From: Candidatus Babeliales bacterium
Lineage (GTDB): Bacteria; Babelota; Babeliae; Babelales; JANWKD01
Direction: 5' to 3'
Length of the DNA stretch: 64,000 nt
NCBI GenBank assembly: GCA_963762115.1
Contig: CAVXJH010000006.1
Location: forward strand, 32,001-96,000
In this document: positions 5,841 to 52,086 of the stretch, in pieces
How the letters are laid out: each line of letters starts with the position of its first letter
Numbering within the stretch: the first letter of the stretch is position 1
Notes under the pieces: model-generated
Told to the model about the DNA's origin: nothing
The model's database searches: none
Seen by the model: only the letters and a program-made list of their open reading frames with translations
Made by a program: the position numbers and the translations under genes

Positions 5841-5883
5841 ATAGAACTAAATTGGGTATAAAAAAGTGGCTTTTTACAAAGAA

Positions 5884-6085
5884 AATGTCATTGCGAGGCA
5901 CATTGTGCCGTGGCAACCCAGATTATAATGTTCTAATAAATGAATTTCTAACGAAAACGACCTGCTTCTTTATCTTATAATCAGTAACTGCCAGATTGTA
6001 GGTTTTTAATATGCTTATAGAATGAAAACAAAATTAAATTTTATATACTGGGTTGCCACGGCACAATGTGCCTCGCAATGACATT
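5884..6085. mobile_element. MITE / Rickettsia-palindromic-element-like repeat, complete copy
   Basis: Perfect 38-bp terminal inverted repeats AATGTCATTGCGAGGCACATTGTGCCGTGGCAACCCAG; related copies elsewhere in window. Confidence 0.8.
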
Positions 6086-6273
6086 CTCAGGTCACTATCT
6101 CAGTAGTATGATAAAAAAAGTAGTTAGCACTCTTGGAAATTCACCATAGACAGTATTTTTTAGCTATTTTTACTGGACTTTTTTTCAAAATAGTTTACAA
6201 TAAGAAATAAACAGGGTCTTGCTTACGGTCGTAATCAGACTCATTTAATAACAAATTTAACTGTGTGTGCGGA

Positions 6274-8074: not shown

Positions 8075-8812
8075 GTGAAAACGTATAAAATTATTATTGC
8101 CTATCAAGGCACTCAGTATGCAGGTTGGCAAATACAACAACATGAATATGCAATAGCCAACCTGTTACAAGATCGCTTCTTTACCGTTTTTAACAAAAAA
8201 ATTCACCTAAGCGCTGCTTCACGCACTGATGCTGGTGTTCATGCACACGGTCAAGTTGCCACTTTTAACGTTGATCTTGCTATTCCTGCAGAAAAATTAC
8301 GTTTTGCATGGAATAATGTTTTACCAAAAGATGTTATCATTCGATCACTTGAAGAAGTTTCTTCTTCATTTAATCCCCGTTATGATGTTGCACAGAAAAC
8401 ATATTGGTATCATTTTTTTCTTGAACAACCGCTGCCCCCCTTTAATCAATATGGTTATTATATAAAACAACCGCTTGATCTGATTCTCCTTGATCAAGCA
8501 TTATCTCTTTTTGTTGGTGAACATGATTTTCGTGCGTTTGCCTCAGATGTCACGGGCAAAAACACCCTGCGCAAAATTGATAGTATCACCCGAGATTTCA
8601 ATGAACAGCTGCAAGCACACCGCATTATTGTAAAAGGCAAAAGTTTTTTACATTGCATGATTCGGCGCATTGTTGGCGCAAGCCTTAAGGTGGCACAAGG
8701 CAAAACGGATTGCGCTCAGGTACAACGCATTTTAGAAGCAAAAAATCCTAATCATGCATTGCCAAATGCCCCTGCTCATGGCCTCACACTAAAAGAAATT
8801 ATCTATAAATAA
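8075..8812 (+). CDS. truA: tRNA pseudouridine(38-40) synthase
   Basis: YQGTQYAGWQ, SRTDAGVHA, GEHDFRAF, APAHGL. Confidence 0.95.
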   Translation: MKTYKIIIAYQGTQYAGWQIQQHEYAIANLLQDRFFTVFNKKIHLSAASRTDAGVHAHGQVATFNVDLAIPAEKLRFAWNNVLPKDVIIRSLEEVSSSFNPRYDVAQKTYWYHFFLEQPLPPFNQYGYYIKQPLDLILLDQALSLFVGEHDFRAFASDVTGKNTLRKIDSITRDFNEQLQAHRIIVKGKSFLHCMIRRIVGASLKVAQGKTDCAQVQRILEAKNPNHALPNAPAHGLTLKEIIYK

Positions 8813-8870
8813 AAAAATAGATTTTTTTCTTATATGCCTTATAATCATTTAATCTTTTATATACTTTTTA

Positions 8871-8901
8871 CTGGATCCCCACGCTTCGCTCGGGAAGACA
8901 G
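8871..8901 (-). repeat. Divergent single arm of the palindromic repeat family
   Basis: Reverse complement reads CTGTCTTCCCGAGCGAAGCGTGGGGATCCAG, resembling GTCATTGCGAG..CGTGGCAACCCAG. Confidence 0.55.
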
Positions 8902-8920
8902 TCGAAAAAACAAGGACAAC

Positions 8921-10003
8921 ATGAAATATAAAAATATAATCCAAAATCACCTCCTAGCAGCACTTCTCATCATCAACATAAATTCATGTTTGAGCATGGA
9001 CTATATCAAAGAATGTGCACATGAACTCAAAGATAATGCTCGTGAATTTTCTCATACTACTCAAGACTTTTGGAAAAATGCCAATCTCCTAACAAAAACT
9101 GCTGTTGTTTTAGGTGTAAGTGGAGCTAGTGGCTATATTCTTTTGAATGAATGGAGAAATCGTTGGAACAAAGCACGCATTAAAGAATTAGAAGAAACAG
9201 AACTTGTTGTCGGAGCAATAGCATATGGCGGATTTAATAGTTCTCGTGATAAAATATTAGAAAAAATTCACGAAGATAAGCAAACAAATAAAAACAATAC
9301 GAGAGAAATGCTTTTTGAAGGCAATCTAGGAGTAGGTGATCATCATCCAAAAACTCGCACTTTCTTGACGAAACAAATAAACGAAAAGTTTTTTGGTTAT
9401 GGAGAAGCACCTGGATATTTGTTACAAGAAAAAAGTAATGAACTTGAAAAACATATGGCAATACTGTTAATTGCTTTATGCGATATTCATCCAAATGATT
9501 CGATATTAACAAGTTTGAAATATGCAAGGTACCCCGAAAAATTTTCAAGAGATGAAATAAAAAATACAAATAATACAGTACCAACAATCATACGTATATT
9601 AAAAGAAAAGTTTAGCAGAACAGTCTTTGAAAAAGAAAATCTCTCAGATGACGAGCAAAACAACACCAATAACAATTCTGAAGAAGAAGAAGAAGAAGAA
9701 GACGATAATAAAAACTATGGAGGTCCATGGGATACAACAATACAAAACAGCGAAGACGAAGAAACCGAACAAGAAATTGCCATGGATCCATTCAGGGCTC
9801 TTGAAGATAGAGTTGCCCATGACGCCTCAGACTATGAAACAAATGAATATTACGAAGAATTGCGAACACAGGCTTGGAATAGCATAGCATGGAATAAACA
9901 TAGTTATACAGTCGAAATAGCAACTAGAGTTTGCAATAAACTAATAGCAGAAGCAGAAAACAAAGCGGCCTTACGAAAACGAGAAAAACATCTTTTAGCG
10001 TAA
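8921..10003 (+). CDS. Secreted hypothetical protein with acidic low-complexity tract
   Basis: Long ORF, RBS AAGGA, signal peptide ending CLS-MD, poly-E/D region. Confidence 0.7.
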   Translation: MKYKNIIQNHLLAALLIININSCLSMDYIKECAHELKDNAREFSHTTQDFWKNANLLTKTAVVLGVSGASGYILLNEWRNRWNKARIKELEETELVVGAIAYGGFNSSRDKILEKIHEDKQTNKNNTREMLFEGNLGVGDHHPKTRTFLTKQINEKFFGYGEAPGYLLQEKSNELEKHMAILLIALCDIHPNDSILTSLKYARYPEKFSRDEIKNTNNTVPTIIRILKEKFSRTVFEKENLSDDEQNNTNNNSEEEEEEEDDNKNYGGPWDTTIQNSEDEETEQEIAMDPFRALEDRVAHDASDYETNEYYEELRTQAWNSIAWNKHSYTVEIATRVCNKLIAEAENKAALRKREKHLLA

Positions 10004-10017
10004 ATATACATAACATA

Positions 10018-10049
10018 AAAAGTGGGGGGTCATGTGACCTCCGCTTTTT
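10018..10049 (+). terminator. Rho-independent terminator
   Basis: AAAAGTGGGGGGTCA-TG-TGACCTCCGCTTTTT. Confidence 0.6.
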
Positions 10050-10187
10050 GGTTTTTAATTATCGCGTCGCTCTTAGAAAGAACCTATTGTGCCCAGGCAC
10101 AAGACAAAAATCCCTAATTATGCAGTGCCCAATGCCCCTGCCGATCGCCTCATCCTTAATGAAATTAAATATAAATAATCAAACACA

Positions 10188-27546: not shown

Positions 27547-27987
27547 GTGAAAGATTTTGAATTACTTCCTCACACCGCAGATTTAAAAATAAGAGCATTT
27601 GGTACTACGCTCAATGAACTTTTTAAACATGCATTAATTGGTATGTTTCAGAGCATTCATCCCAAAACATCTTCATGCACCTATCTCCATGATCGCTTAG
27701 TATGCCAAAACTTGCCAAAACAACACAGCATAACCTTGCATAATGATGATCTTACCCTTTTACTAGTCGATTTTTTATCAGAAGCTCTCTATCTTTCTGA
27801 CATTCATAATGAAGCATATCTCAATGCATCAGTTACCATTCATGAGAACTACACGTTGCATGCAAGTATCTATGGCATTCCCATTGATGGGTTTGAGGTC
27901 GTTGAAATTAAAGCAGTCACCTACCATGATCTACGCATTGAATGTATTAAGGGGGTTTGGCAAGCAGATATTGTTTTTGATATTTAA
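27547..27987 (+). CDS. Archease
   Basis: HTAD, EIKAVTYH, terminal FDI; directly upstream of rtcB. Confidence 0.92.
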   Translation: MKDFELLPHTADLKIRAFGTTLNELFKHALIGMFQSIHPKTSSCTYLHDRLVCQNLPKQHSITLHNDDLTLLLVDFLSEALYLSDIHNEAYLNASVTIHENYTLHASIYGIPIDGFEVVEIKAVTYHDLRIECIKGVWQADIVFDI

Positions 27988-27999
27988 AAAGGAAACTAC

Positions 28000-29454
28000 A
28001 TGAACGAAAAACCCACTCGTGATGATCTGATCAAAATTGATGAATCAATCTACGAAATTCAAAAAACATTTCGTCCTGATATGCGTGTCCCTGCACGTAT
28101 TTTTGCCAGTGAAAAAATCTTACAAGAAATCTTTGAAGATCGCTCTTTAACACAATTGATTAATGTGACAACACTGCCAGGTATTGTTGATCATGCTTAC
28201 GCCATGCCTGATATGCACGAAGGATACGGCTTTCCCATCGGCGGTGTCGCGGCAACACAAATTAACAATGGTGGTGTTATCTCACCTGGTGGCATTGGGT
28301 ATGATATCAATTGCGGTGTGCGTTTACTTGCTGGTGCAATCACCGTTGACGAAATAAAACCATTCCTCGATGAATTAGCAACAGCACTCTATCACGTGGT
28401 TCCTTCAGGCGTTGGGCGCGGCGGCAGTTTAAAATTAACCATAAAAGAGTTGGATGCAATTTTAAAACATGGCGGAAAAAAATTACTCGAACAAGGATTT
28501 GGCACAGAACGAGATCTTGTTTTTTGTGAAGAACAAGGGGTTATGCATGGCGCTGATCCATCACTTGTGTCAGATCGTGCAAAGCAACGTGGCCACGATC
28601 AATTAGGTACCTTAGGCTCAGGCAATCATTTTCTTGAAGTTCAATATATTGATACCATTTTTGATCAACAGGCAGCCGATGCTTTCGGATTACAAAAAGG
28701 TATGGTCACCATTATGATTCATTGCGGATCACGAGGATTAGGCCATCAAGTTTGCACTGATTATGTGCGCGAAATGATGCCCCTACTGAAAAGATGGGAT
28801 ATTGTGTTACCCGACCGAGAACTTGTTTGCGCACCTTTTACTTCGCAACAAGGACAAGATTATTTTGCTGCCATGCAGGCTGCTGCAAATTTTGGTTGGG
28901 CAAATCGTTTGATGATTGCGCATAAGGTAAGAACTGCTTGGCAAAAAATACTGGGTACTACCGTTGCATTGGAAACAGTATATGATCTCTCTCATAATAT
29001 TGGTAAACAAGAACAGCATTTCATTAATCAAAAAGAAATTAATGTTATGGTACATCGCAAAGGGGCAACGCGCGCATTTGGCCCTGGACGCACTGAAATT
29101 CCTGGCTTATATCGGCACATTGGCCAACCAGTATTAATTCCCGGCACCATGGGCACCGCTTCCTATATTTTAGTGGGCACCAATCAAGGCATGGAGCTCT
29201 CATTTGGCAGTTCATGTCATGGTGCAGGCAGACGTTTATCACGCATGAAAGCAAAGAAAGAAGTTCGTGGGTCAACGTTACGGCAAGAACTTGAAAAAAA
29301 AGGTATTATCATTCGTTGTGAGTCAGATGCCGGATTAGCCGAAGAGGCACCGATCGCTTACAAAGATGTTGAAGAAGTAGTAAATACGATTGCACAAACC
29401 AAATTAGCAAAAAAAGTTGCACGAGCAGTTCCCTTAGCAGTTATTAAAGGTTAA
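28000..29454 (+). CDS. rtcB: RNA-splicing/repair ligase RtcB
   Basis: MPDMHEGYGFPIGG, GYDINCG, GSGNHF, HRKGAT, SCHGAGR, EEAP..YK. Confidence 0.97.
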   Translation: MNEKPTRDDLIKIDESIYEIQKTFRPDMRVPARIFASEKILQEIFEDRSLTQLINVTTLPGIVDHAYAMPDMHEGYGFPIGGVAATQINNGGVISPGGIGYDINCGVRLLAGAITVDEIKPFLDELATALYHVVPSGVGRGGSLKLTIKELDAILKHGGKKLLEQGFGTERDLVFCEEQGVMHGADPSLVSDRAKQRGHDQLGTLGSGNHFLEVQYIDTIFDQQAADAFGLQKGMVTIMIHCGSRGLGHQVCTDYVREMMPLLKRWDIVLPDRELVCAPFTSQQGQDYFAAMQAAANFGWANRLMIAHKVRTAWQKILGTTVALETVYDLSHNIGKQEQHFINQKEINVMVHRKGATRAFGPGRTEIPGLYRHIGQPVLIPGTMGTASYILVGTNQGMELSFGSSCHGAGRRLSRMKAKKEVRGSTLRQELEKKGIIIRCESDAGLAEEAPIAYKDVEEVVNTIAQTKLAKKVARAVPLAVIKG

Positions 29455-31017: not shown

Positions 31018-31149
31018 TGTCATTGCGAGCCAACATTGTTGGCGTGGCAACCCAGCATATAAAATTCTTTTTATTTTTGCTAATTAATTTGAATTTACTA
31101 ATTCAATAAATCTTAATTTTAGGGATTTCATTAATTAGAACATTATAAT
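31018..31149 (-). mobile_element. Truncated copy of the palindromic MITE, reverse orientation
   Basis: One arm GTCATTGCGAGCCAACATTGTTGGCGTGGCAACCCAG plus a spacer resembling the reverse complement of the 58052-58229 spacer; second arm missing. Confidence 0.7.
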
Positions 31150-40734: not shown

Positions 40735-41190
40735 TTAATGATCCTTTGCATGCGTCCAATTATCTTCAGAATACAAAATTGATTTTGAGATTAATTCAAG
40801 TGCCTTAGCATGACGAGGAATCATATTGTCTGGAAGCTTGTCCAACGGAAACCATTCTAATGCCGCATTCTTGTGCGGTTCTTTATTCTGTATTTCACCT
40901 TGCCACGAACGAATAACAAAAAATAACGCAATGCATGGAGTTTGATCAACGCCATAAAAATGCATAACATGAGCAAATTGTGCATCTTGCTCAGCAATAG
41001 TTATGCCAATTTCTTCAAAAAGTTCTCGCGCAAGAGCTTGTGTTGCTGATTCATCTTGTTCTATTTTTCCACCGAGCAATCCATAATAATTTGAAAACCA
41101 TTCAGTGTTAATGCGGTGCCCCAACAAAACTTCGTTGTTATTATTAACAATTATTGCCAGCACATACGGAAACAACATTTGAAGTAACAT
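40735..41190 (-). CDS. NUDIX hydrolase
   Basis: GGKIEQDESATQALARELFEEIG Nudix box; NKEPHK. Confidence 0.9.
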   Translation of the reverse strand: MLLQMLFPYVLAIIVNNNNEVLLGHRINTEWFSNYYGLLGGKIEQDESATQALARELFEEIGITIAEQDAQFAHVMHFYGVDQTPCIALFFVIRSWQGEIQNKEPHKNAALEWFPLDKLPDNMIPRHAKALELISKSILYSEDNWTHAKDH

Positions 41191-41209
41191 AACCCGTAAT
41201 TCTTTCTTT

Positions 41210-41464
41210 CTAATCAGTAATAGCAAGATAACAGCAAAAACATCCAAGACAAGGCGCCATCACACAGATACTTGCCTTCTCTGTCAACCAATAACAATCT
41301 TCATCTCCCCAGCAGTTACCACAATCTTTTTGATGATTCATGGAAACAGTTGAAGGTCTTTGTTTAGGTTGAATCAATTCTTTTTGTTCTTCTTTATTCA
41401 TGCCTGATAATGACATACATAAAGGTGAAATAATCATACAGATTAAAAATAGTTTCTTTTGCAT
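41210..41464 (-). CDS. Small secreted Cys-rich protein
   Basis: Signal ending LSG-MN, C-terminal CLGCFCC. Confidence 0.55.
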   Translation of the reverse strand: MQKKLFLICMIISPLCMSLSGMNKEEQKELIQPKQRPSTVSMNHQKDCGNCWGDEDCYWLTEKASICVMAPCLGCFCCYLAITD

Positions 41465-41650
41465 AACATTCCTTTTTTTTACTCACCTTAAATCAATGTT
41501 TTTTTTAAGATTCTAGATTAACAAATTGTGTTATGTAATACTATTTTTTCTAGTTTTGCGCAGGGCACACAAGCTTATTGCATTTTTTTATACCGCCAAG
41601 TACAATTGCACAACAATATAAACTTCACATCACACAAGGAATTTTTTGTA

Positions 41651-43123
41651 ATGAAAAAACTACTATTTTTTATATTTTGTTTAACAATGATAGCTCAAAA
41701 AAATCTCCATTCTATGGAGAAATTTACTGAAGAATCCGAAGATAAATCTGTTGAAATGGTAAACTTAGTTGACGTACTACCACATGTTGCTGGCGATGAA
41801 TTTTTAACTCGTATCGTACAATTAGCAACACATTTAAATACACCAATTGAATTTAATAAAGAGAGAACATCATGCTTTCAATTTGGCCCACAGCAAATTC
41901 TCGATAAAGGCTCACATCAAGTTACTTTATATTCTAGAAATGAATGGGCTCCTTCATGCAATTTAAATCCCGCACAAATTGTATTTGTAGACCAAACAGA
42001 TAAAAATCATTGCTCATTTAACGTTTAATGTTGGCACAGAGATGTTACTCAATTTGGCATTGATAGATATGATGAAACTAAATATAGAATCGATGATGAT
42101 GCACAAAAGAAACGCTTTATGGCATCTACCTCGCTTGAAACAAAAACACCTTTTTTTGATGGCCCTAGCGATGATGGCATATTTATTATTGCAGGAAATT
42201 CAAAACATAAAGAGGAGGTAACTAAAGAAAAAGTAGAAGATACCACTGATATAGCAGAAATACCACAAGAACAAGGATGCTTCTCACGTATATTTAGTTC
42301 CAACAAAAAAGAGAACCCTATCCCCATTCTAAGCCGTCAAAAAGTTTATGAATATTATATAGGAAAATTTAATCAGAAAAGTACCAATCTATACAGACAA
42401 AATATTTATGACAATAAAGAAAACAATGAATTTAATGTTACATCGCCTAGAATTATAGGCACTCTTTCAGCTCTTGCGCTTTGCAAAACAAGAAATTGGA
42501 ATCCAAAAGATCCTACCGATAACAAAAATCGTTTTGCACTTGCAGATGATAAGGGAATATCAATCTATGAAATAAAAGAAGCTGTTAAACAATCTAAGCG
42601 TCATAAAAAAAATAAAGCTGTGATGTCTGTACAACGCATTGGGTTTGGAGAATTATTCAAGCAAAATGAAGATATTATTAATTCCACCCGACGAAGAATT
42701 ATGAATAGCGACGCTACCATAATAAAGCTTAGTTTTATAACACCAAAAACTTTGTTGGGGCTTACTCATTCAGGAAAATTATTTAGTTTTGCATTAGATA
42801 CACAATTCAACACCATTACATCTGCACCACACACTATTAAAAATAAAGAAGGACAAGAATTAGTTGTGCATAATTTTGCTCTTAATCCTTGCAAACCTAA
42901 TCAGGTTGTTCTTTGTACAAAAGAAGGCAACATTCTTTATTTGAATCTTAAACATTGTATGAAACCAGCTCAGGGAAAAAAAGCAAAACTTTTGATGAGT
43001 GTAGAAAAACTTCCTGATTCAATGTGGTTTTATGATACAAGACTCTGCTTAGGAAGTTATTTTGCACTTGAAACTGAAAATTATACCTTAGCTGATTTAG
43101 ATTTAAGACTGGAAAAAAAATAA
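41651..43123 (+). pseudogene. Paralog of 43181..44500 interrupted by a single in-frame TAA (42026-42028)
   Basis: Two ORFs in the same frame; the paralog has CAA(Q) at the aligned codon. Confidence 0.8.
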
Positions 43124-43180
43124 AAATATTTTAAAAATTTTGCAAAACGTCTTCAGCATGCTCTAAAGGAATTTCTTGTA

Positions 43181-44500
43181 ATGAAAAAACTACTATTTTT
43201 TATATTTTGTTTAACAATAATAGCTCAAAAAAATCTCCATTCTATGGAAAAATTCATTGAAGAATCCGAAGTTAAACCTTTCGAAATGATAAACTTAGTT
43301 GACGCGCTACCCAATGTCGAAGGCGATGCATTATTAATTCGAGTCATACAATTAGCCACACATTCAGATGCTAAAATCGAATTTAGCAAAGATAAAACAT
43401 CATGCTTTCAATTTGGCCCACAGCAAATCTCTGGTAAAAAATCAAATAGAGTTACCTTATACTCAGATGAAGAATGGACTCCTTCAATCAACTTAAACTC
43501 CACGCAAATCGAACAAGATGAAGAAGACTATTTATTTACTGTTCAATGTTACCACGAAAATGTTACTCAATTTGGCATTATTGGCATTGATAGATATATT
43601 AAAACTAAATATAGAATTGATGATGATGCACAAGAAAAGCGCTTTATGGCTTCAGCATCACTTGAAACAAGAAAACCGTTCTTTGATGGCCCTACCAATG
43701 ACATATTTATTATTGCAGGAAATTCAAAAGAAATTAAAGAATATGAATATTATATAGGAAAATTTAATTCGAAAAGTACCGATCTATACAAACAAGATAT
43801 TAATGACATTTTAAAAGAAAATAATAAGTTTAATGTTACATCGCCTAGAATTATAGGAACTCTTTCAGCACTTGCGCTTTGTAAAACAAGAAATTGGAAT
43901 CCTAATGATCCCACCGATAACAAAAATCGTTTTGCACTTGCAGATGATCGTGGAATATCAATCTATGAAATAGAAGAAGCTGTTGAACAATCTAAGGATA
44001 AAGCTGCTATGTCAGTGCAACAAATTGGTTTTGGCCTATCTATAATAAAGAAAAAAAACATAACAGAAAAAGATACATGTATTGAAGTTCCTGTATTACT
44101 AAAAAAAATTAGCTTTATAACACCAAAAACATTATTAGGGCTTTCAGAGTCAGGCAGATTATTTAGTATCGCCTTAGACAAAAAATGGGGTACAATTACT
44201 TTAGAACCGCAAACAATTAAAAACAATCAAGGAGAAATATTAGATTTTCATACCTTTGCACTCAATCCTTGCAAACCTCATCAAGTTGTTCTGTGCACTA
44301 GGGGATGCCAAATCCTTTATTTAAATCTTAAAAATTGTTTAAACCCTGACGAAAAAAAGGTAAGATTTTTGATGCCAACAAAAAGACTCCCTGATTCAAT
44401 GTGGTTTTATAACACCAGACTTTGCTTAGGGAATTATTCTGCTATTAAAACTGAAAATTATACCTTAGCTGATTTAGATTTAAGACTGGAAAAAGATTAG
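43181..44500 (+). CDS. Secreted hypothetical protein, possibly beta-propeller-like; intact tandem paralog
   Basis: Signal ending LHS-ME; long near-identical blocks with 41651..43123. Confidence 0.75.
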   Translation: MKKLLFFIFCLTIIAQKNLHSMEKFIEESEVKPFEMINLVDALPNVEGDALLIRVIQLATHSDAKIEFSKDKTSCFQFGPQQISGKKSNRVTLYSDEEWTPSINLNSTQIEQDEEDYLFTVQCYHENVTQFGIIGIDRYIKTKYRIDDDAQEKRFMASASLETRKPFFDGPTNDIFIIAGNSKEIKEYEYYIGKFNSKSTDLYKQDINDILKENNKFNVTSPRIIGTLSALALCKTRNWNPNDPTDNKNRFALADDRGISIYEIEEAVEQSKDKAAMSVQQIGFGLSIIKKKNITEKDTCIEVPVLLKKISFITPKTLLGLSESGRLFSIALDKKWGTITLEPQTIKNNQGEILDFHTFALNPCKPHQVVLCTRGCQILYLNLKNCLNPDEKKVRFLMPTKRLPDSMWFYNTRLCLGNYSAIKTENYTLADLDLRLEKD

Positions 44501-44728: not shown

Positions 44729-44787
44729 CTAAAACTTCCAACACATTTCAATTTCGCCGCCAAGATCACCACGTTCATCGCGAATGC
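44729..44787 (-). repeat. tamB 3'-end copy D (partial)
   Basis: Encodes IRDERGDLGGEIEMCWKF*. Confidence 0.9.
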
Positions 44788-44832
44788 TAGAAATTGTCCT
44801 TTAAAAAAACTCAGGTAAAATGAATAGTAATG

Positions 44833-47421
44833 TTATTTTTTTTCAAAAACAGAAAGACCTGATAAACCTTCTGCGCTAAGATTATGAGGATGGACACGTT
44901 GCGCCGACAAACTATTTATTAAATTATTCATTTTTTCTGTTGTTAACTTTTTTTCTATTTTAACTTGATAATGAGATGGAGAGTCGTCATCAAGAAATAT
45001 ACCTTTTCTAATTCTCATTTTTGTACTCAAAACACTGAGCATTGTTTGTGCTTCATCGATAGCAGGTTTTGTTATTTCCGGCGATAGAATATCTCTATTT
45101 TCTTCTGCTAGTTTCCGCAAACAAACAATTTGATCACCTCCATTGCGAAGAACTTCATGAGTTATAAATTTTTTATGAGCCTTACACGAATCAACTATCG
45201 CCCGTAAAGAATCAATATAAAGACCCGTAGTCTGCTCAATTGCTCTATTGTTTAATTCCTCTTTGGTAGATTTTGCAAACTGCATGCGAGGAAGCCTTGT
45301 TATAAAATCTATTCCTTGTTGAGGGTGATCAAATGAATCTATAATTTTTTTGTTATCTTCAAGCGCCGAAGTTTGATCTAACTGTTCAATTTCTCCTTGC
45401 GAAAATAATTTCATAAGATCGGCAGAGGAATGTATTTCAGCTAAGGCGCCTTTTGCTCTAACAATTTCTCTTACTCTTTGCTTAACTCGTTGTTTAAATT
45501 TTGTTACTTTTTTTTCACCATACATTCTTTCAGCTTCACTATCAATAAGACTAACAAGTTTTCGTGGGCGATTACTGCAAAGATCTTTATTAATGCTTTG
45601 TTTTAAGGCAACAATTGTTGCTTCTACTGAAAGAATGTTGTCCTGATTACTTTCAGATATTCTTAATCTGTGTTCAATATCAGTTTTTTGTATTTTTTTG
45701 AGAGCAACAAGATTCCTGACATTTTTACTTAGCATATGATTAAACGTGTCAATCGGAAAAGAATTATCAATGGTAATCAAATATTTAGTTGCTTCATCAT
45801 TAAATCGACTTACCTGCACATCTAGATCTTTACAATTTGAAACTCGATCGACAAACCAATCCACAAGATTTTTCTTAATAAGATCATGAATTTTTTCTAA
45901 CGTCGACACATCATACCCACTTAAAAAATCATCATTTATAACACTTTCAAAGGGTTCATTTGCATATATAGGTGGTTTTATATGTTTCTCGACAAATGCT
46001 TCAGCAATCACTTCTGGTTTTTCATTTTCAATATAATCTTCAATTCTACAAGTAAGTAATCTTTGCTCGAAAGAAGTAAATGTTGCAAATATCGGATGTG
46101 TTTTCAAAAAGTTCAAATCTGCTTTTCTACCATTTTCTCGAGCAGCTTCCAATGAAAGCTTATAAAGAAGCTGTTCAAACGTAGGTTCAGCAAGAGTATT
46201 AAATTCAGTAAATTTTACGCCATCATCCTTATGAGTATAAAAATCTGAATCAACAAGATGATTATTATCCAAAGATTGACTATAAAGAGTTGGATCAGAC
46301 CGCATATGAAAAATTTTTTTTACTTTTCCATCAAAAGAAACATTATTGAGTGCATTGTTATGGATAACTATGAGCTTATTTCCGGGCGCTATCGCCACTA
46401 CATCGTCATATTGTTTACGCAGTGATTCCTGCTTAACATCAAACAAAAATCCTTCTTTTTCATCTTTTTTTAAAAAAATAAATTTACTGTCCGGTGAAAT
46501 AATACTTTTACTCACGGGCATCTCAACTGCAATTTTTTTTGGCACAAAAAAATCTGCACACCGTGAATCAGGAATATTTTGATCCCATTTATAGACTTCA
46601 CCTTTGCTATTAACTGAAACAAAATATGAACCATTTGGTGCACATGACAGATGAGTTATAGGATCTTTTTCAACTCCTTTCAAGAAAAATTTCTTCCATT
46701 TACCTTTTCTTGCAAAAGGATTATCGTATTCAATAGTTATTCCCTCAATAGAACCATCAGCATAACCAACAAAAAGAACGTTATTATCAGCCGAAAAAGT
46801 AAGAGAATGAAACAAAGCAGCATCAACCTTTCTTCCTGTAATACTGGGAAATAAATGTTGGTTGAGAATAATAAATAGCTGGGTATCACTAGCAACTGCT
46901 ATGCAACTATTATCTTGCGTTGAAGTAATATATTTAATTTTTCCCTGACAAGGATTGTTTCTACAGGTTAGTATTCTCCCATCTAAAATACCAATAGTAT
47001 CAAAAGGCTCATCATACCACATGCAAAGTTTCGCATTATACCATTGAACATCAACATGGCCAGGTACGAATGCTCGACATTTCCATGTTGGCTGCGTATG
47101 AGCTTTCCAATATTGCAATAAGCAATTAGGTGAAATCTTCAGATGTTCTAATTGCTCAAACATTTCTTCAATTACTTGCTTTGACGCAAGAGGATCTTTG
47201 GTATCAATATTATCTTTAACGTTATTTGCTATTGCACCTAAACAAATAGCTCGAAGACTTTTCATAAAACCTGAATTGGGATAAAAATGATGGTAATCTT
47301 TTCTACTATCAAATTTTTCTTGAGGAACCGTTTTTTCAGGTTCAGACATCCCAAAAAGCATGTAAGGAATAATGGCAGCAGTCATCAACAGAATAATTAA
47401 AAAGTGCGAGCATTTTTTCAT
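44833..47421 (-). CDS. Large secreted protein with WD40-like region (cassette cargo)
   Basis: Signal peptide; SLTFSADNNVLFVGYADGSI, ITHLSCAPNGSYFVS..KWD, SIISPDSKF. Confidence 0.75.
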   Translation of the reverse strand: MKKCSHFLIILLMTAAIIPYMLFGMSEPEKTVPQEKFDSRKDYHHFYPNSGFMKSLRAICLGAIANNVKDNIDTKDPLASKQVIEEMFEQLEHLKISPNCLLQYWKAHTQPTWKCRAFVPGHVDVQWYNAKLCMWYDEPFDTIGILDGRILTCRNNPCQGKIKYITSTQDNSCIAVASDTQLFIILNQHLFPSITGRKVDAALFHSLTFSADNNVLFVGYADGSIEGITIEYDNPFARKGKWKKFFLKGVEKDPITHLSCAPNGSYFVSVNSKGEVYKWDQNIPDSRCADFFVPKKIAVEMPVSKSIISPDSKFIFLKKDEKEGFLFDVKQESLRKQYDDVVAIAPGNKLIVIHNNALNNVSFDGKVKKIFHMRSDPTLYSQSLDNNHLVDSDFYTHKDDGVKFTEFNTLAEPTFEQLLYKLSLEAARENGRKADLNFLKTHPIFATFTSFEQRLLTCRIEDYIENEKPEVIAEAFVEKHIKPPIYANEPFESVINDDFLSGYDVSTLEKIHDLIKKNLVDWFVDRVSNCKDLDVQVSRFNDEATKYLITIDNSFPIDTFNHMLSKNVRNLVALKKIQKTDIEHRLRISESNQDNILSVEATIVALKQSINKDLCSNRPRKLVSLIDSEAERMYGEKKVTKFKQRVKQRVREIVRAKGALAEIHSSADLMKLFSQGEIEQLDQTSALEDNKKIIDSFDHPQQGIDFITRLPRMQFAKSTKEELNNRAIEQTTGLYIDSLRAIVDSCKAHKKFITHEVLRNGGDQIVCLRKLAEENRDILSPEITKPAIDEAQTMLSVLSTKMRIRKGIFLDDDSPSHYQVKIEKKLTTEKMNNLINSLSAQRVHPHNLSAEGLSGLSVFEKK

Positions 47422-47564
47422 ATAATAATTTTTTCATTCTTTAAAGATATCTTTAATCAGTTTTTTAATAACAATATGCACACTTGTAATTATGAATAAA
47501 AAGACTAAAAATGCAATCGCGATACTAGAAAATATACCGTTTTAGGGATTTTTTAAGAACAGTG

Positions 47565-47694
47565 CTAAAATTTCCAACGCATTTCAATTTCACCGCCAAG
47601 GTCACCACGTTCATCGCGAATGCCGCGAATGGCAATATCATCAGCAAAGAAATATTCGACCCCCCACATAAATCATTGATATGCTTATTACCTA
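47565..47694 (-). repeat. tamB 3'-end copy C plus conserved arm
   Basis: VEYFFADDIAIRGIRDERGDLGGEIEMRWKF* preceded (gene sense) by TAGGTAATAAGCATATCAATGATTTATGTGG. Confidence 0.95.
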
Positions 47695-47748
47695 TTTGAT
47701 ACCATACAAATCAAATAAAAATTCTCTTTAAAAAAAAGGATTTAAAAA

Positions 47749-48408
47749 ATGCAAACTATAGCAAAAAACTTACATACTTTTTTGTTAATAACAATATCTT
47801 TTTTTACGATAAACTACCTACAATCCATGCAACAGGAAGCACTATTAAGAAATGAACTTTCAACACTTGAAAAAAAATTATTCGATCTACAAACAGCTCT
47901 CAACACTTCTATAATACCTTCAACCCCAAAAAAACAGCCGATTCATCTTGTCACTCCAGGAGCATTAAATTTTGAAAATATACCTTACTATGTTTCAGGC
48001 GCAGGATCATTACCAAGCTTTACAAATACTTTTATAAAAAATATTGAAGATGAATTAATAATTTCATTCAAAAAAACATCTAACATAGAAGAAATAGGTT
48101 CATCAAACATAGGATTTTATTTTAGTTCTCTAATTACTTCAAGATTTACTAATTTAATTAAAGGTACTGTAACTAAATTGCAACAAGCAAGAGCTAGTCA
48201 ACCTAATAACATTATTCTTATAATGTTTACCGGAGAAAAAAAATCACTTATTAAAAAATATGAAGATTCAAAAGAGGCTGAAGAGTTAACAAAAACACAT
48301 ATATATCCTTTTATATTTCAGTCGAGTAAAGAAAATATCTTCGATAGAGATTTTAACAAAAAAAAATTAATAAAAGTCATTGAAAGCCTTGAGTTACTCG
48401 GAACATGA
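47749..48408 (+). CDS. Secreted hypothetical protein (cassette cargo)
   Basis: RBS AAGGA, signal ending LQS-MQ, short coiled coil. Confidence 0.7.
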   Translation: MQTIAKNLHTFLLITISFFTINYLQSMQQEALLRNELSTLEKKLFDLQTALNTSIIPSTPKKQPIHLVTPGALNFENIPYYVSGAGSLPSFTNTFIKNIEDELIISFKKTSNIEEIGSSNIGFYFSSLITSRFTNLIKGTVTKLQQARASQPNNIILIMFTGEKKSLIKKYEDSKEAEELTKTHIYPFIFQSSKENIFDRDFNKKKLIKVIESLELLGT

Positions 48409-48415
48409 TAGTTTT

Positions 48416-48544
48416 CTAAAACTTCCACCGCATTTCAATTTCACCACCAAGATCACCGCGTTCATCGCGAATGCCGCGAATGGCAATATCATCAGCAAAG
48501 AAATATTCAACCTCCACATAAATTATTGATATGCTTATTACCTA
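48416..48544 (-). repeat. tamB 3'-end copy B plus conserved arm
   Basis: EVEYFF..EMRWKF* preceded (gene sense) by TAGGTAATAAGCATATCAATAATTTATGTGG. Confidence 0.95.
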
Positions 48545-48576
48545 AGCAATTAGAAAATGTTATAGCGAAAATCACA

Positions 48577-49005
48577 TCACTCGGAGCATGATCCTTTAAA
48601 ATTAATATTCTCCAACATTCTCAACGTTGCAAAATATTCATAAATTCGAGAACAAGTCTCCTTAGCTGTTTCTTCATTATAATCATGTGTTGTTGCATTT
48701 CTTGCTTCAGAAATATCTAAGAGTTTTTTTGTTTCTTCTTGAGTTATAATATTTAATAAAAAACATTCACGAAAAATTGCTTTTGGTGATGCAAGCTCGA
48801 CGGAATGAAGTTCTTTAATATACTGCTGAAGAAACTTCCAACACATTTCATAGCAAATTTCAAAATGCTTAACCAATGAAGCGACAGCATTTTCTAATTC
48901 ATCTGTTGCGGCATTAGCAGCATATTTACTTGAAAATTTTAAACTCCGTTCCAATGCACTCAATGATTTTAAAAACTTTTGGTGTGCAAAAACTAACTTT
49001 TCCAC
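48577..49005 (-). CDS. HEPN / nucleotidyltransferase substrate-binding protein (HI0074 family), TA toxin
   Basis: FEICYEMCWK, SPKAIFR, RNATTHDY (Rx4H). Confidence 0.9.
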   Translation of the reverse strand: MEKLVFAHQKFLKSLSALERSLKFSSKYAANAATDELENAVASLVKHFEICYEMCWKFLQQYIKELHSVELASPKAIFRECFLLNIITQEETKKLLDISEARNATTHDYNEETAKETCSRIYEYFATLRMLENINFKGSCSE

Positions 49006-49283
49006 AAAATTCCCTCTTTCATAATATTTTCTTTTAATGCAAGAGGAATTCTATTAAAATCAACAACATCAACTTTCTGAGGAATATTAAGGGCATCTAT
49101 CATACTAACTATTTGACCTTTTTGCGTCATTGACATTGGACTTTTTGCATCTATTGCAATATCAATATCAGAAGTCTCTGCATAATCTCCCCGAGCACGA
49201 GACCCAAAAAGATATATTTTTGCTTCTGGAAAAAATATAGTAATAACCTTGATAATTCGTTCTTTTTGCTCTTTATTTGGCAT
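48993..49283 (-). CDS. Minimal nucleotidyltransferase (MNT) antitoxin
   Basis: YLFGSRARGD..SDIDIA, KVDVV. Confidence 0.92.
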   Translation of the reverse strand: MPNKEQKERIIKVITIFFPEAKIYLFGSRARGDYAETSDIDIAIDAKSPMSMTQKGQIVSMIDALNIPQKVDVVDFNRIPLALKENIMKEGILWKS

Positions 49284-49347
49284 ATTTTTTTCTAACGTAT
49301 TTGTTAAATTGATATATCATTAGCTCTATAACAATAAAGTAATTTTT

Positions 49348-52086
49348 CTAAAACTTCCACCGCATTTCAATTTCACCACCCAGGTCACCGCGTTCATCGC
49401 GAATGCCGCGAATGGCAATATCATCAGCAAAGAAATATTCAACTTCAAGCTTTATATCTTCGGGCAAACTAAAGTTTCTTTGAATTGTGCCATGCAGTTG
49501 ATCATTCACTTCAATTTCAATCGCGCCACGAAAGCCGCCACGGCCTTGAGGGTCAAAAAATTTCGGCACAAAACGAATGTGCTTCAGAGGACCAAGAAGG
49601 TTTTTGAAATACCGCTCTAGTTTTGAAGATGATTGCTCAGGACCAAAGAGAACATTCTGCATACTTTGCATGATAACTGAAGGTACCACTAAACTTAACG
49701 AACCCTCTTCTGAACCAGCCAATAATAACGTGATTATTTGTTCCTCGGTGAGGGGCGGGGTTGATTCAAAAGAAATATGTGGATTTTGCAAAGAACCATC
49801 ACAACGCATAACAATATGATATTTTCGAATCATGCCTTTTGCTACCAAGTCAACAAGAGGATCAAAAAGTTGATTAGGAAGAAAATAAATTGTCGCATTG
49901 GTGATTGTTAATGGTTTATAAGGAAATGCCAAAACACCTCGCTCTAAGTTTAATGCCCCTGAAACACGTGGGTTTTGTGATGTTCCTTGCACGGCAATGT
50001 TTAATCGCGCATTTGCCTCTAAGAATGATGTTTTTACTTGTAATGAATCTTTAGTTTGCACCGTAAGGTCAATAGCACATTGATGTTGATCATCAGCGAC
50101 TTTTGACCGCGATAAAAATGAAAAGTTTTGTTGTTGCGCTACTAATGAAAAAATATTTTTTTTCATATATGCCTTATCGATGATCACTGAACCTTGCAAA
50201 GCAGGCATACTATTTTTTACGTGCGTCCAAATAATATGCCCTGAGAGCAAGGCAAAAAAATCTTTATCAAGAGCCAATAATGTTTTTTGCAAAGAACAGG
50301 GAAAATACATATAAGAAATAGTTGCATCAGAATCAAATTCAATAATTGCTCGCTTTGTTTCAAGAGCACCGCGATCAAGTTCAAGCCTAGCTTGATGTAT
50401 TACCATTTTCCTTGTTGTAACATCAAAAGTAAGTGAACTTTGTAGCCCACGAATAAGATTATATATTCCTGGAATGCGAATATTACTGTTTTCTGTTGCA
50501 ATCTTTAAGTCTAGCTTTTCAGAGGCTAACTCACCTGAAAATAAAAATTTTCCCTCACCAGGAATCTTATTGGCACATACAAAATCAACACAATTTTGTA
50601 GCAACTGATACTCAATAACTCCTTGAAATTGGTGCCAATCTTCTTTTTTTGTCGTTAATGAAAAGAGATTTTTGGCAGCAGAATCCTGATAATGCATTTG
50701 CAGCAATGTTTGCGTTGGCATCAAATTAATTGCTACATCAAAAGGACTTTCGTTAATCTTACCTGATGCGTTATAATGACAATTCGACCCTTGTAAAATT
50801 CCTTGAGCATCAATCGGCATATTTTTTTCATCATGCTCAGCATGCACAGCAAAAGCAACAGAACATGAACCACTCAAACTAAAATCGGCTTGCAAAGAAA
50901 GACCATGCGGCTCAATTTTATATGATGCCTGAGAAATAAGTAGGGGAGAATTATTGGAAAAATGCACATTTCCTTGCCCTGTTTCAGGATTGATTGACCA
51001 TATGCCCTCAATATTTTTTTGTTCATTACTACCTACACAAAAATCGCCAAACCATTTTTGATTATCAAGCGTAAAACTACTCTGTAATGATCCTAGAATG
51101 TTTCCCACGTAAGGAATATCATTAATTTCTAAATTTCCCTGAATAGCAAGACAATCATTATACGTAATATGCGCTTTCACGTTACCAATACCATCAAGCG
51201 TAGAAGCATCGGGGAGTATATTTTTTTGTAAAAAGCTCAGTGGCGTACTCATAACAAGATCACCGGCAACATTTTTTTTATCAGTTAGTTGTATGTCATT
51301 TACCCCAATAAAAAAAGAATCTTCGTGGTTATGCAACACAAAAGATCCTTGCGTTTCTTGCCAGTTACCCTGATAAGAACAATATTGTTTTGTCACCTCT
51401 AAATCAGGAAAGAGTACATTTCCTTGCACCTGCAGCGTAACACAAGGATCTTCGATATTTTTTACAAAAATTTTTGTAAGAAACGACCAATCTTTGCAAA
51501 ACTTTTTATGTCCTTGTTGTATTGCACCATCAATTGCCGAAAGGTCAATTTTTATATTTTTATTATTCATATAGGTATGTAAATTAAATTGAGTTACATA
51601 ATGAACATCATGCTCATAATCATCTAAGCCAAAATGTCCTTTTGTTACATGCAATTCTTGCAATCCTACAGGAAATCCTTCTGCGCCTCCCATCAAGCGC
51701 AGTAAATGATGAACAATGCCAATATCACAACCTTTTAATCGCGATTGTGCGTTCACTTGCTCTAATACAACGGTTAAATTAAATCCTAATGTCACCAAAA
51801 AATTTAACCAAGAAAAACTAAGATTAAATTTTTTTGCATGCCATTCCCACTCACCCTTTTCATCTGATAGTGTTGAAACATTATGTAACTCAATCTCACC
51901 ACCAAGAATATCAATTTTTGATACCGTACCATTCAAACAACAAGAAAATGTTTCTGCAAAAATAGTTTTCAAATTTTTTTCTAAAAATTTTTTAAACGCA
52001 TCATCATGCTCAAGCAAATAAAAAAATAATTTTATACCAAGAAAAATAATCAAAAACAGCTGCAAAAAAAACCTAATTTTCCTCAT
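49348..52086 (-). CDS. tamB: Translocation/assembly module TamB-domain protein
   Basis: N-terminal anchor, beta-rich body, GTSQNPRVSG, GSLQNP..FESTPPLTEEQIITLLL, terminal beta-strand ending WKF; ATGA overlap with upstream gene. Confidence 0.8.
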   Translation of the reverse strand: MRKIRFFLQLFLIIFLGIKLFFYLLEHDDAFKKFLEKNLKTIFAETFSCCLNGTVSKIDILGGEIELHNVSTLSDEKGEWEWHAKKFNLSFSWLNFLVTLGFNLTVVLEQVNAQSRLKGCDIGIVHHLLRLMGGAEGFPVGLQELHVTKGHFGLDDYEHDVHYVTQFNLHTYMNNKNIKIDLSAIDGAIQQGHKKFCKDWSFLTKIFVKNIEDPCVTLQVQGNVLFPDLEVTKQYCSYQGNWQETQGSFVLHNHEDSFFIGVNDIQLTDKKNVAGDLVMSTPLSFLQKNILPDASTLDGIGNVKAHITYNDCLAIQGNLEINDIPYVGNILGSLQSSFTLDNQKWFGDFCVGSNEQKNIEGIWSINPETGQGNVHFSNNSPLLISQASYKIEPHGLSLQADFSLSGSCSVAFAVHAEHDEKNMPIDAQGILQGSNCHYNASGKINESPFDVAINLMPTQTLLQMHYQDSAAKNLFSLTTKKEDWHQFQGVIEYQLLQNCVDFVCANKIPGEGKFLFSGELASEKLDLKIATENSNIRIPGIYNLIRGLQSSLTFDVTTRKMVIHQARLELDRGALETKRAIIEFDSDATISYMYFPCSLQKTLLALDKDFFALLSGHIIWTHVKNSMPALQGSVIIDKAYMKKNIFSLVAQQQNFSFLSRSKVADDQHQCAIDLTVQTKDSLQVKTSFLEANARLNIAVQGTSQNPRVSGALNLERGVLAFPYKPLTITNATIYFLPNQLFDPLVDLVAKGMIRKYHIVMRCDGSLQNPHISFESTPPLTEEQIITLLLAGSEEGSLSLVVPSVIMQSMQNVLFGPEQSSSKLERYFKNLLGPLKHIRFVPKFFDPQGRGGFRGAIEIEVNDQLHGTIQRNFSLPEDIKLEVEYFFADDIAIRGIRDERGDLGGEIEMRWKF

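Follow-up and report, generated by a model that had tools for sequence, protein, structure and literature searches.

Tail copies of tamB and other genes in a Babeliales genome: possible scars of integrase-free capture

Integrons and the accretion of cis-mobilisable elements (CIME) stack small cargo units, the newest beside a fixed point. For restriction-modification genes, insertion with long target duplication has been described, and the passages on its origin propose DNA breakage as a trigger (Furuta, Abe, Kobayashi 2010, PMC2853133); IS1630 is mentioned there as well. In arrays of displaced type VI secretion system (T6SS) and Rhs toxin ends, one-sided homologous recombination was proposed in the corresponding section (PMC5361080). 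According to the results given in a further report, re-circularised fragments that inserted by a single crossover in E. coli left gene-end duplications of 109–950 bp in 56 of 60 clones, far above deletion-type events (PMC3240628). Here, repeated copies of the 3' end of tamB are described from a 64,000-nucleotide stretch (the window; contig C6, positions 32001-96000, of genome G000, which comprises 1.53 Mb on 7 contigs in an assembly that is 95% complete). The organism is a Babeliales (Babeliota/Dependentiae) bacterium. Babeliota are described as reduced intracellular parasites of protists with signal peptides on up to 44% of their proteins, many of which are orphan open reading frames (ORFans) (PMC6561590).

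An earlier note, written from the letters alone, had reported that the tamB end recurs in the same orientation at 48416 and 47565 and partially at 44729, and the copies were located exactly there.
49348..52101, minus strand: tamB, 917 amino acids, the live anchor gene (PF04357, E 1.5e-18); its last 99 nucleotides (49348-49446) are the repeated tail
48416..48514, minus strand: copy c1 of the tamB tail, 97.1% identical over 103 nucleotides (E 6e-44), three synonymous and no replacement changes
47565..47660, minus strand: copy c2 of the tamB tail, 93.8% identical over 96 nucleotides (E 3e-36), six synonymous and no replacement changes; the live end in a close relative (X2)
44729..44787, minus strand: copy c3 of the tamB tail, 88.1% identical over 59 nucleotides (E 1e-14), one R>C change, lacking the arm that flanks c1 and c2

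All three copies share the strand of tamB, with start-to-start spacings of 932, 851 and 2836 nucleotides. When the tail was searched against the whole genome, the next-best match after c1–c3 had an E value of only 3e-4, and no further tail relics were found by nhmmer near the NUDIX or Fic-like genes listed below. The 5' boundary of the copies varies (99, 96 and 59 bp in G000, and 172 bp in G059, a phylum genome from another family). Copy c2 carries one additional G-for-E codon at its 5' edge, outside the six synonymous and no replacement changes of its aligned codons, and c3 shows five synonymous changes, the R>C exchange and one edge codon. The claim that the differences are synonymous third-position changes, except for one R>C in the most distal copy, was therefore confirmed for c1 (three to none), c2 (six to none) and c3 (five and R>C), with the edge codons of c2 and c3 besides. 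Together, c1 and c2 hold nine synonymous and no replacement changes, and about 17 replacements would be expected under neutral drift over half the divergence (hand calculation). An assembly artefact is unlikely as the cause, because synonymous changes set the copies apart and the assembly agrees at every position with a public contig over 48500-48736; the run of this contig may be the source sample. In the read check of the array, coverage was patchy, no contig spanned the array, and the c3 junction (beyond 46900) lay outside the checked part.

For comparison, a sequencing run from another study (X2, nucleotide identity to G000 ~95%), a metagenome contig of a relative (L037, 82%) and the genome of a sister species in the same genus (G001, 77%) were used; TamB is 75% identical at the amino-acid level in L037 and 51% in G001. 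A 204-nucleotide contig of X2 covers 47472-47657, with c2 and the region upstream of the WD40-like gene; past this stretch its remaining letters agree with live tamB at 17 of 17 positions and not with the arm. It differs by five changes in the tamB tail, all of them synonymous. In this relative, live tamB leads straight into the WD40-like unit 3, and units come and go. The idea that the copies once worked as TamB C-termini is upheld by the nine synonymous and no replacement changes of c1 and c2 and by the position of c2, which is the live end in X2.

The cargo between the copies is as follows.
48993..49283, minus strand: MNT (minimal nucleotidyltransferase), cargo of unit 1 (PF18765/PF01909; NF047752 59.3 bits, cut-off 60)
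48577..49005, minus strand: HEPN protein, cargo of unit 1 (PF08780/PF01934; TIGR01987 55.1, cut-off 55.8)
47749..48408, plus strand: ORFan of 219 amino acids with a signal-peptide-like N-terminus, cargo of unit 2; no family, no homologue
44833..47421, minus strand: WD40/beta-propeller-like protein, 862 amino acids, cargo of unit 3 (weak Pfam matches, PF23414 and PF00400, below cut-off)

The MNT and HEPN genes are adjacent and overlapping and form a putative type VII-like pair, with scores just below the NCBIfam cut-offs. An MNT orthologue with 84% identity sits behind tamB-Fic in G001, and a DNA alignment with G001 showed that HEPN extends six codons beyond the stop of its counterpart, into the likely ORFan-unit relic described below. 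For the 219-amino-acid ORFan, no homologue was found across 214 phylum genomes except itself, and a second search likewise returned only itself. The WD40-like gene has a 36% identical homologue in G001 that adjoins sbcD, not tamB. The picture of stacked units bounded by repeats, with an MNT-HEPN pair, an ORFan and a WD40-like gene between the copies, stood up as well, the WD40 label being weakly backed. Signal-peptide calls throughout were made by eye and by our own crude heuristic.

Further away from tamB, two genes connect the locus to its relatives.
40735..41247, minus strand: NUDIX gene, directly behind tamB in L037
34825..35264, minus strand: Fic-like gene, internally deleted with the promoter kept, directly behind tamB in G001; named after a motif of the G001 protein

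The gene next to tamB is WD40-like in X2, NUDIX in L037, and Fic-like followed by MNT-HEPN in G001. In G000, the WD40, NUDIX and Fic-like genes sit 2, 8 and 14 kb behind tamB, matching the order in which the relatives diverged. These three points and one contig suggest that new units enter adjacent to tamB. The comparison of the tamB-downstream locus that the earlier note had proposed accordingly gave variable content, with a repeat-bounded indel in X2 and other neighbours in L037 and G001. Repeats of the tamB tail were present at none of 30 tamB loci of relatives, and a metagenome pattern scan found two loci with repeats at neither. A TamB end was detectable in 205 phylum genomes; three of these had more than one TamB-end match, and an extra tail copy behind tamB was found in only two; the match of G122 consists of two near-identical ends on separate contigs, whereas that of G059 is real. 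There, a decayed 172-bp tamB tail lies behind two orphan genes, with one more case within 415 kb. With none of 30 loci and 2 of 205 genomes, tamB as a phylum-wide insertion hot spot was rejected.

Tail copies of this kind, here called scars, are found at other genes too. When all gene ends in G000 were scanned, 24 of 1118 genes had an orphan copy of their tail downstream (29 matches), and the control placements gave 7 (start, upstream), 5 (end, upstream) and 1 (start, downstream). Six genes belonging to a single paralogue array were removed, together with a repeat protein and a doubtful, distant match, which left 16 loci. Besides tamB, the anchors include a PriA-like helicase, rsmG, maf, gpsA, truA, aspS, murB, an SbcD-like gene and rodA; the names priA, sbcD and holA are our own reading. 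Among 489 conserved genes of G000, an end copy lay downstream in 14 cases and a start copy upstream in two, with 0 and 0 for mid-gene windows. The corresponding numbers for 491 conserved genes of G001 were six, three, 0 and 0, at other genes such as gatB. The tail copies at the 16 loci measure 33–195 bp and the inserts 0.6–4.6 kb. In 34 tail alignments, the 5' boundaries range from -33 to -209 with one outlier at -341, and 20 of the 34 end within 6 nucleotides of the stop codon. The ratio of replacement to synonymous change (pN/pS) pooled over these alignments was 0.22, with eight stops and 42 gap columns as later decay; the divergence test proposed in the earlier note thus came out in favour of preserved proteins, c1 and c2 being free of replacements. 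Of 231 pairs of junction-side 60-mers, only c1/c2 exceeded the 99.9th percentile of background. By GC skew, anchors occur on both leading and lagging strands, and therefore scar polarity follows the gene and not the fork. At 9 of 13 loci with orthologues, the immediate neighbour in G001 lies behind the last copy, with the comparison holding in reverse at gatB, one of the G001 genes (our tally). The cargo is signal-peptide-like by the heuristic in 22 of 25 open reading frames (ORFs), compared with 585 of 1325 genome-wide, and 6 of the 25 have an orthologue in G001. The scanned parts of other genomes yielded scars at 2 of 204 ORFs in G003 (both doubtful), 1 of 385 in 36 loci and 2 of 332 in G059. 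A second locus of the same type, which the earlier note had overlooked along with the arm beside c1 and c2, lies within the window.
8075..10178, plus strand: truA (8075-8812), a cargo gene of 389 amino acids (8834-10003) and a 74-nucleotide tail copy (10105-10178, 81% identity)

On balance, the scars were probably left by integrase-free capture of [tail + cargo] pieces from relatives. After end joining, such a piece would have gone in through a single crossover in the tail; otherwise it would have been anchored, with its fusion point upstream of the old stop. A scar likely joins DNA of two lineages, homologous on one side and non-homologous on the other, because the homology is protein-preserving and ends at the stop, as for alleles that are alike only in their coding sequence. 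Drift would be expected in a tail that was duplicated in place, and random end points in a duplication made by a transposase, which makes the join of two lineages the likelier origin. DNA from a relative would enter through pilus/ComEC uptake. End joining, by Ku/LigD or at microhomologies, could then circularise the piece, and a single crossover in the tail would insert it. By an equivalent route, the gene could serve as its anchor, with the fusion lying upstream of the old stop. In either case, the gene would stay whole with a partly new tail, the old tail and the old neighbours would be displaced, and repeated events would stack cargo with the newest next to the gene. A later crossover between tail repeats might duplicate, stack or pop out units, and would yield the ORFan relic in unit 1. 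Genome G000 holds comEC, dprA, recA, MutS, a comM-like ATPase, PilB, a pilin-like gene, Ku, and separate matches to a LigD-like polymerase and ligase, and an uptake-pilus context adjoins tamB upstream.
52083..54297, minus strand: pilin-like gene and PilB/GspE ATPase

We hypothesise a link between Ku and the scars. The Ku and LigD-like domains are dispersed in this reduced genome (C3:255590-256405, C3:216666, C6:1744 and C3:76339).

Several points weigh against such a capture. Its circle, uptake and joining steps are inferred from gene presence; two stops interrupt the LigD-like ligase match at C6:1744; and Ku is present in 51 of 191 phylum genomes, patchily by family (G000, G001, G003 and G059 included), so that finding it in G000, G001 and G059 lends weak support. 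RecA acts poorly on tails of 33–60 bp at 80–90% identity, and the genome also encodes MutS. A strand-symmetric route predicts equal numbers of start copies, but far fewer are seen (2 compared with 14 in G000); weaker 5' conservation and selection may account for this scarcity, which is offered as a supposition. At gpsA, truA and aspS, anchor and copy enclose the same neighbour that G001 has, or a paralogue of it, with sbcD ambiguous, and identity falls with distance at only three of five multi-copy loci, priA and maf being reversed. At tamB, the X2 junction consists of one contig and 17 letters, from which gain and loss are indistinguishable, the neighbour order has three points and would arise by chance in 1 of 6 cases, and the MNT-HEPN pair itself lies behind tamB in G001.

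Some of these points would be expected if the polarity were reversed. The orphan tail would then be that of the donor, an incoming piece of tail, other neighbour and downstream anchor having recombined downstream and been fused illegitimately behind the resident cargo, with distal units newer, as in classical homology-facilitated illegitimate recombination. Such an order of events fits gpsA, truA and aspS, the MNT-HEPN pair held in common with G001, and the reversed identity order at priA and maf, and it accounts for the tail limit of ~200 bp, as longer tails would give a clean double crossover. However, at 9 of 13 loci the outgroup neighbour lies behind the copy, which under reversed polarity would call for an additional, unseen insertion and an event without gain, and at tamB the proximal units look new from the order of the relatives. 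We consider the reverse polarity unlikely, if the strongest competitor of capture from relatives.

Incoming DNA would be unnecessary if the gene tail and the next gene were duplicated locally in tandem, with one copy diverging, being deleted or being replaced afterwards. Paralogue arrays are common in G000, paralogous cargo is found at maf, aspS and G001:1140727, and what is likely a relic of unit 2 lies within unit 1. Against this stands the prediction of neutral drift with a pN/pS near 0.5 relative to the live gene, compared with 0.22 pooled and no replacements in c1 and c2; moreover, the tamB cargoes are mutually unrelated and c2 is the live end in a relative. This leaves local duplication a slightly smaller probability than reverse polarity. 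As a separate observation, about 13 tandem secreted-looking paralogues at C6:349268-361607, with the first and last 36–90 nucleotides near-identical and the middles divergent, look like a shuffling array.

The earlier note had favoured site-specific insertion of cassettes at an att site, forming an integron-like array. Integrases often target gene 3' ends, and non-autonomous cassettes could have been inserted, as in CIME accretion, by a recombinase that worked in trans or has been lost (XerCD or one of the large serine type), with the sequence next to c1 and c2 as attP.
48515..48592, plus strand: likely shrunken relic of an ORFan unit, with the 30-nucleotide promoter-side arm (48515-48544), a degraded start region and a 14-nucleotide 3' end (48579-48592)
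47665..47705, plus strand: arm in unit 2 (47665-47694); it overlaps the sigma70-like site (47676-47705) that precedes the ORFan

The arms beside c1 and c2 are identical at 29 of 30 positions, the c1 and c2 boundaries agree within 1 nucleotide, and the arm loosely resembles a dif motif. Nevertheless, no further arm copy was found in the genome at up to eight mismatches, and it is absent at c3, at the G059 copy and at the 15 other loci. The 78 nucleotides between HEPN and c1 match the ORFan 3' end at 13 of 14 positions (none of 3000 random 72-mers was as good), and their match to the ORFan start region is marginal (200 of 5000 random intergenic 34-mers score equally). Sigma70-like sites are no more frequent than in shuffles (25 and 23.5). 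A second ORFan unit, of which the arm would be a remnant, is a better reading than attP, because the 78 nucleotides hold ORFan start and 3' matches in order and the arm overlaps the ORFan promoter-like site. Given these matches and the absence at c3, an attP or dif-like arm is the less likely reading. Nor is a dif/Xer reading established, the loose dif-like pattern having 36 genomic matches and the arm fitting the dif-like sites at the skew peak poorly.

As for the enzymes, no integrase or transposase family was found among 54 scanned ORFs of the window (tamB and truA loci included), as the earlier note had stated for the window. Genome-wide, all matches to PF00589, PF00239 and PF01609 lie outside it. 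Tyrosine recombinases (PF00589) are limited to two genes of 299 and 319 amino acids, XerC/XerD-sized and on another contig, with no IntI besides. The two large serine recombinases sit in other elements, and their contexts and those of the four IS (insertion sequence) copies are unrelated to the scar loci. A genome search for recombinases and further repeat copies, as had been suggested, thus found the former (two PF00589 genes, two large serine recombinases), although outside the window, and no further tamB repeat copies. As for attC-type sites, the repeats are coding tails, and no junction motif was shared among 231 pairs except c1/c2, with no Rfam or attC model run. Sixteen targets would require many lost integrases. 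With a boundary that is not fixed, 16 unrelated anchors without a common arm, an arm that is probably an ORFan-unit relic and extra copies in 2 of 205 genomes, the att-site array was not borne out, and a site-specific recombinase is regarded as improbable. Least probable are long variable target-site duplications made on non-autonomous cargo by a transposase of the IS1634/IS1630 kind, insertion sequences that do make long variable repeats, since the four PF01609 copies in the genome have terminal inverted repeats without long direct repeats around them, the cargo units share no terminal motifs or common ends, and the homology stops at the stop codon and not at random points behind it.

Other observations were made alongside. 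Dif-like sites with a 7-nucleotide instead of a 6-nucleotide centre lie near the GC-skew peak (G000:C3:222604 and C3:234755; L039:6180 and 16872; L041:6327); the two G000 sites are syntenic in G001 and one of them in G020. A phylum scan found such sites in 40 of 151 genomes, compared with ~29 in the reversed control, a weak enrichment by which a host dif is not established. The large serine recombinase at C5:162729-164195 is 95% identical to one in G001; its start is repeated 6.9 kb upstream, and it marks a recent mobile element. A dispersed palindromic intergenic repeat is found at 5881-6088, 31040-31149 and 58079-58227 of the window, and related sequence lies beside IS copies elsewhere. The window also holds an AbiEii-type nucleotidyltransferase with an upstream partner, likely a type IV toxin-antitoxin pair (1459-2783), an archease adjoining RtcB (27547-29454), and more distal cargo behind tamB.
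41528..44500, plus strand: gene of 439 amino acids and a split older paralogue; tail copy absent by nhmmer

The split paralogue (41528-43123) has 59–71% amino-acid identity to the 439-amino-acid gene. At the end of contig C5 (166988-171046; L195, L196), accD-, cysA- and ycf3-like ORFs, for which Pfam gave only carboxyl transferase and TPR, resemble plastid genes and may be contamination.

How Babeliota gain secreted ORFan genes with few mobile elements is a question that tail scars would help to explain. Tentatively, and with less confidence than for capture from relatives as such, Babeliales with both DNA uptake and Ku/LigD end joining could use them for genome-wide recombinase-free capture, in which any conserved tail is a landing site and the gene is never broken, building much of the secreted ORFan repertoire and leaving dated, layered arrays that would act as integrons do but lack an integrase. 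Each scar records one gain; the sequence of gains can be read from the scars and the displaced allele is retained, so that donor, age and route are testable from strain genomes. A literature search, with subscription papers outside its scope, returned no report of such scars for Babeliota.

The closest resemblance is to insertion with long target duplication, for which the relevant passages describe small gene sets, long (>30 bp) variable imperfect direct repeats, absence of a mobility gene and a relative whose site is empty; most of the species are naturally competent, and some targets overlap gene 3' ends (PMC2853133). The Babeliales loci agree with this in repeats of 33–195 bp, inserts of 0.6–4.6 kb (<20 kb), no mobility gene in the scanned tamB and truA loci, and a one-copy empty site in X2, L037 and G001. 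They differ in their cargo, mostly secreted-looking ORFans and at tamB an MNT-HEPN pair, an ORFan and a WD40-like gene instead of restriction-modification genes, and in a repeat that is nearly always a coding tail ending near the stop, at 16 loci per 1.5-Mb genome, some stacked two or three deep. Like the Vibrio T6SS effector-immunity and Rhs displacement arrays, as these are portrayed by Kirchberger et al. 2017 (PMC5361080), they show integrase-less, integron-like stacking in which older parts are pushed back and displaced 3' ends are kept. Those arrays, according to the same account, swap a variable toxin end, and immunity genes accumulate at dedicated loci, whereas the anchors in Babeliales are many housekeeping genes whose protein is unchanged. 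The fragment circles of E. coli came from a laboratory conjugated plasmid, with no natural cargo, uptake or Ku in the experiments concerned (PMC3240628). The microcin H47 island is likewise integrase-free, with long imperfect repeats and crossovers at several repeat positions, but is presented as a single 12.6-kb island whose mobility was shown there to be RecA-independent (Azpiroz et al. 2011, PMC3191183). Unlike integrons and CIME, the scars have no IntI, no attC-like or other common site and no fixed crossover, and the arm occurs on only two of the three tamB units; a direct repeat at a gene end alone does not prove an att site. The footprint is thus known from restriction-modification genes and toxin arrays, and what is new, within the literature searched, is its density in this Babeliales genome (16 loci in 1.5 Mb) and the use of housekeeping tails.

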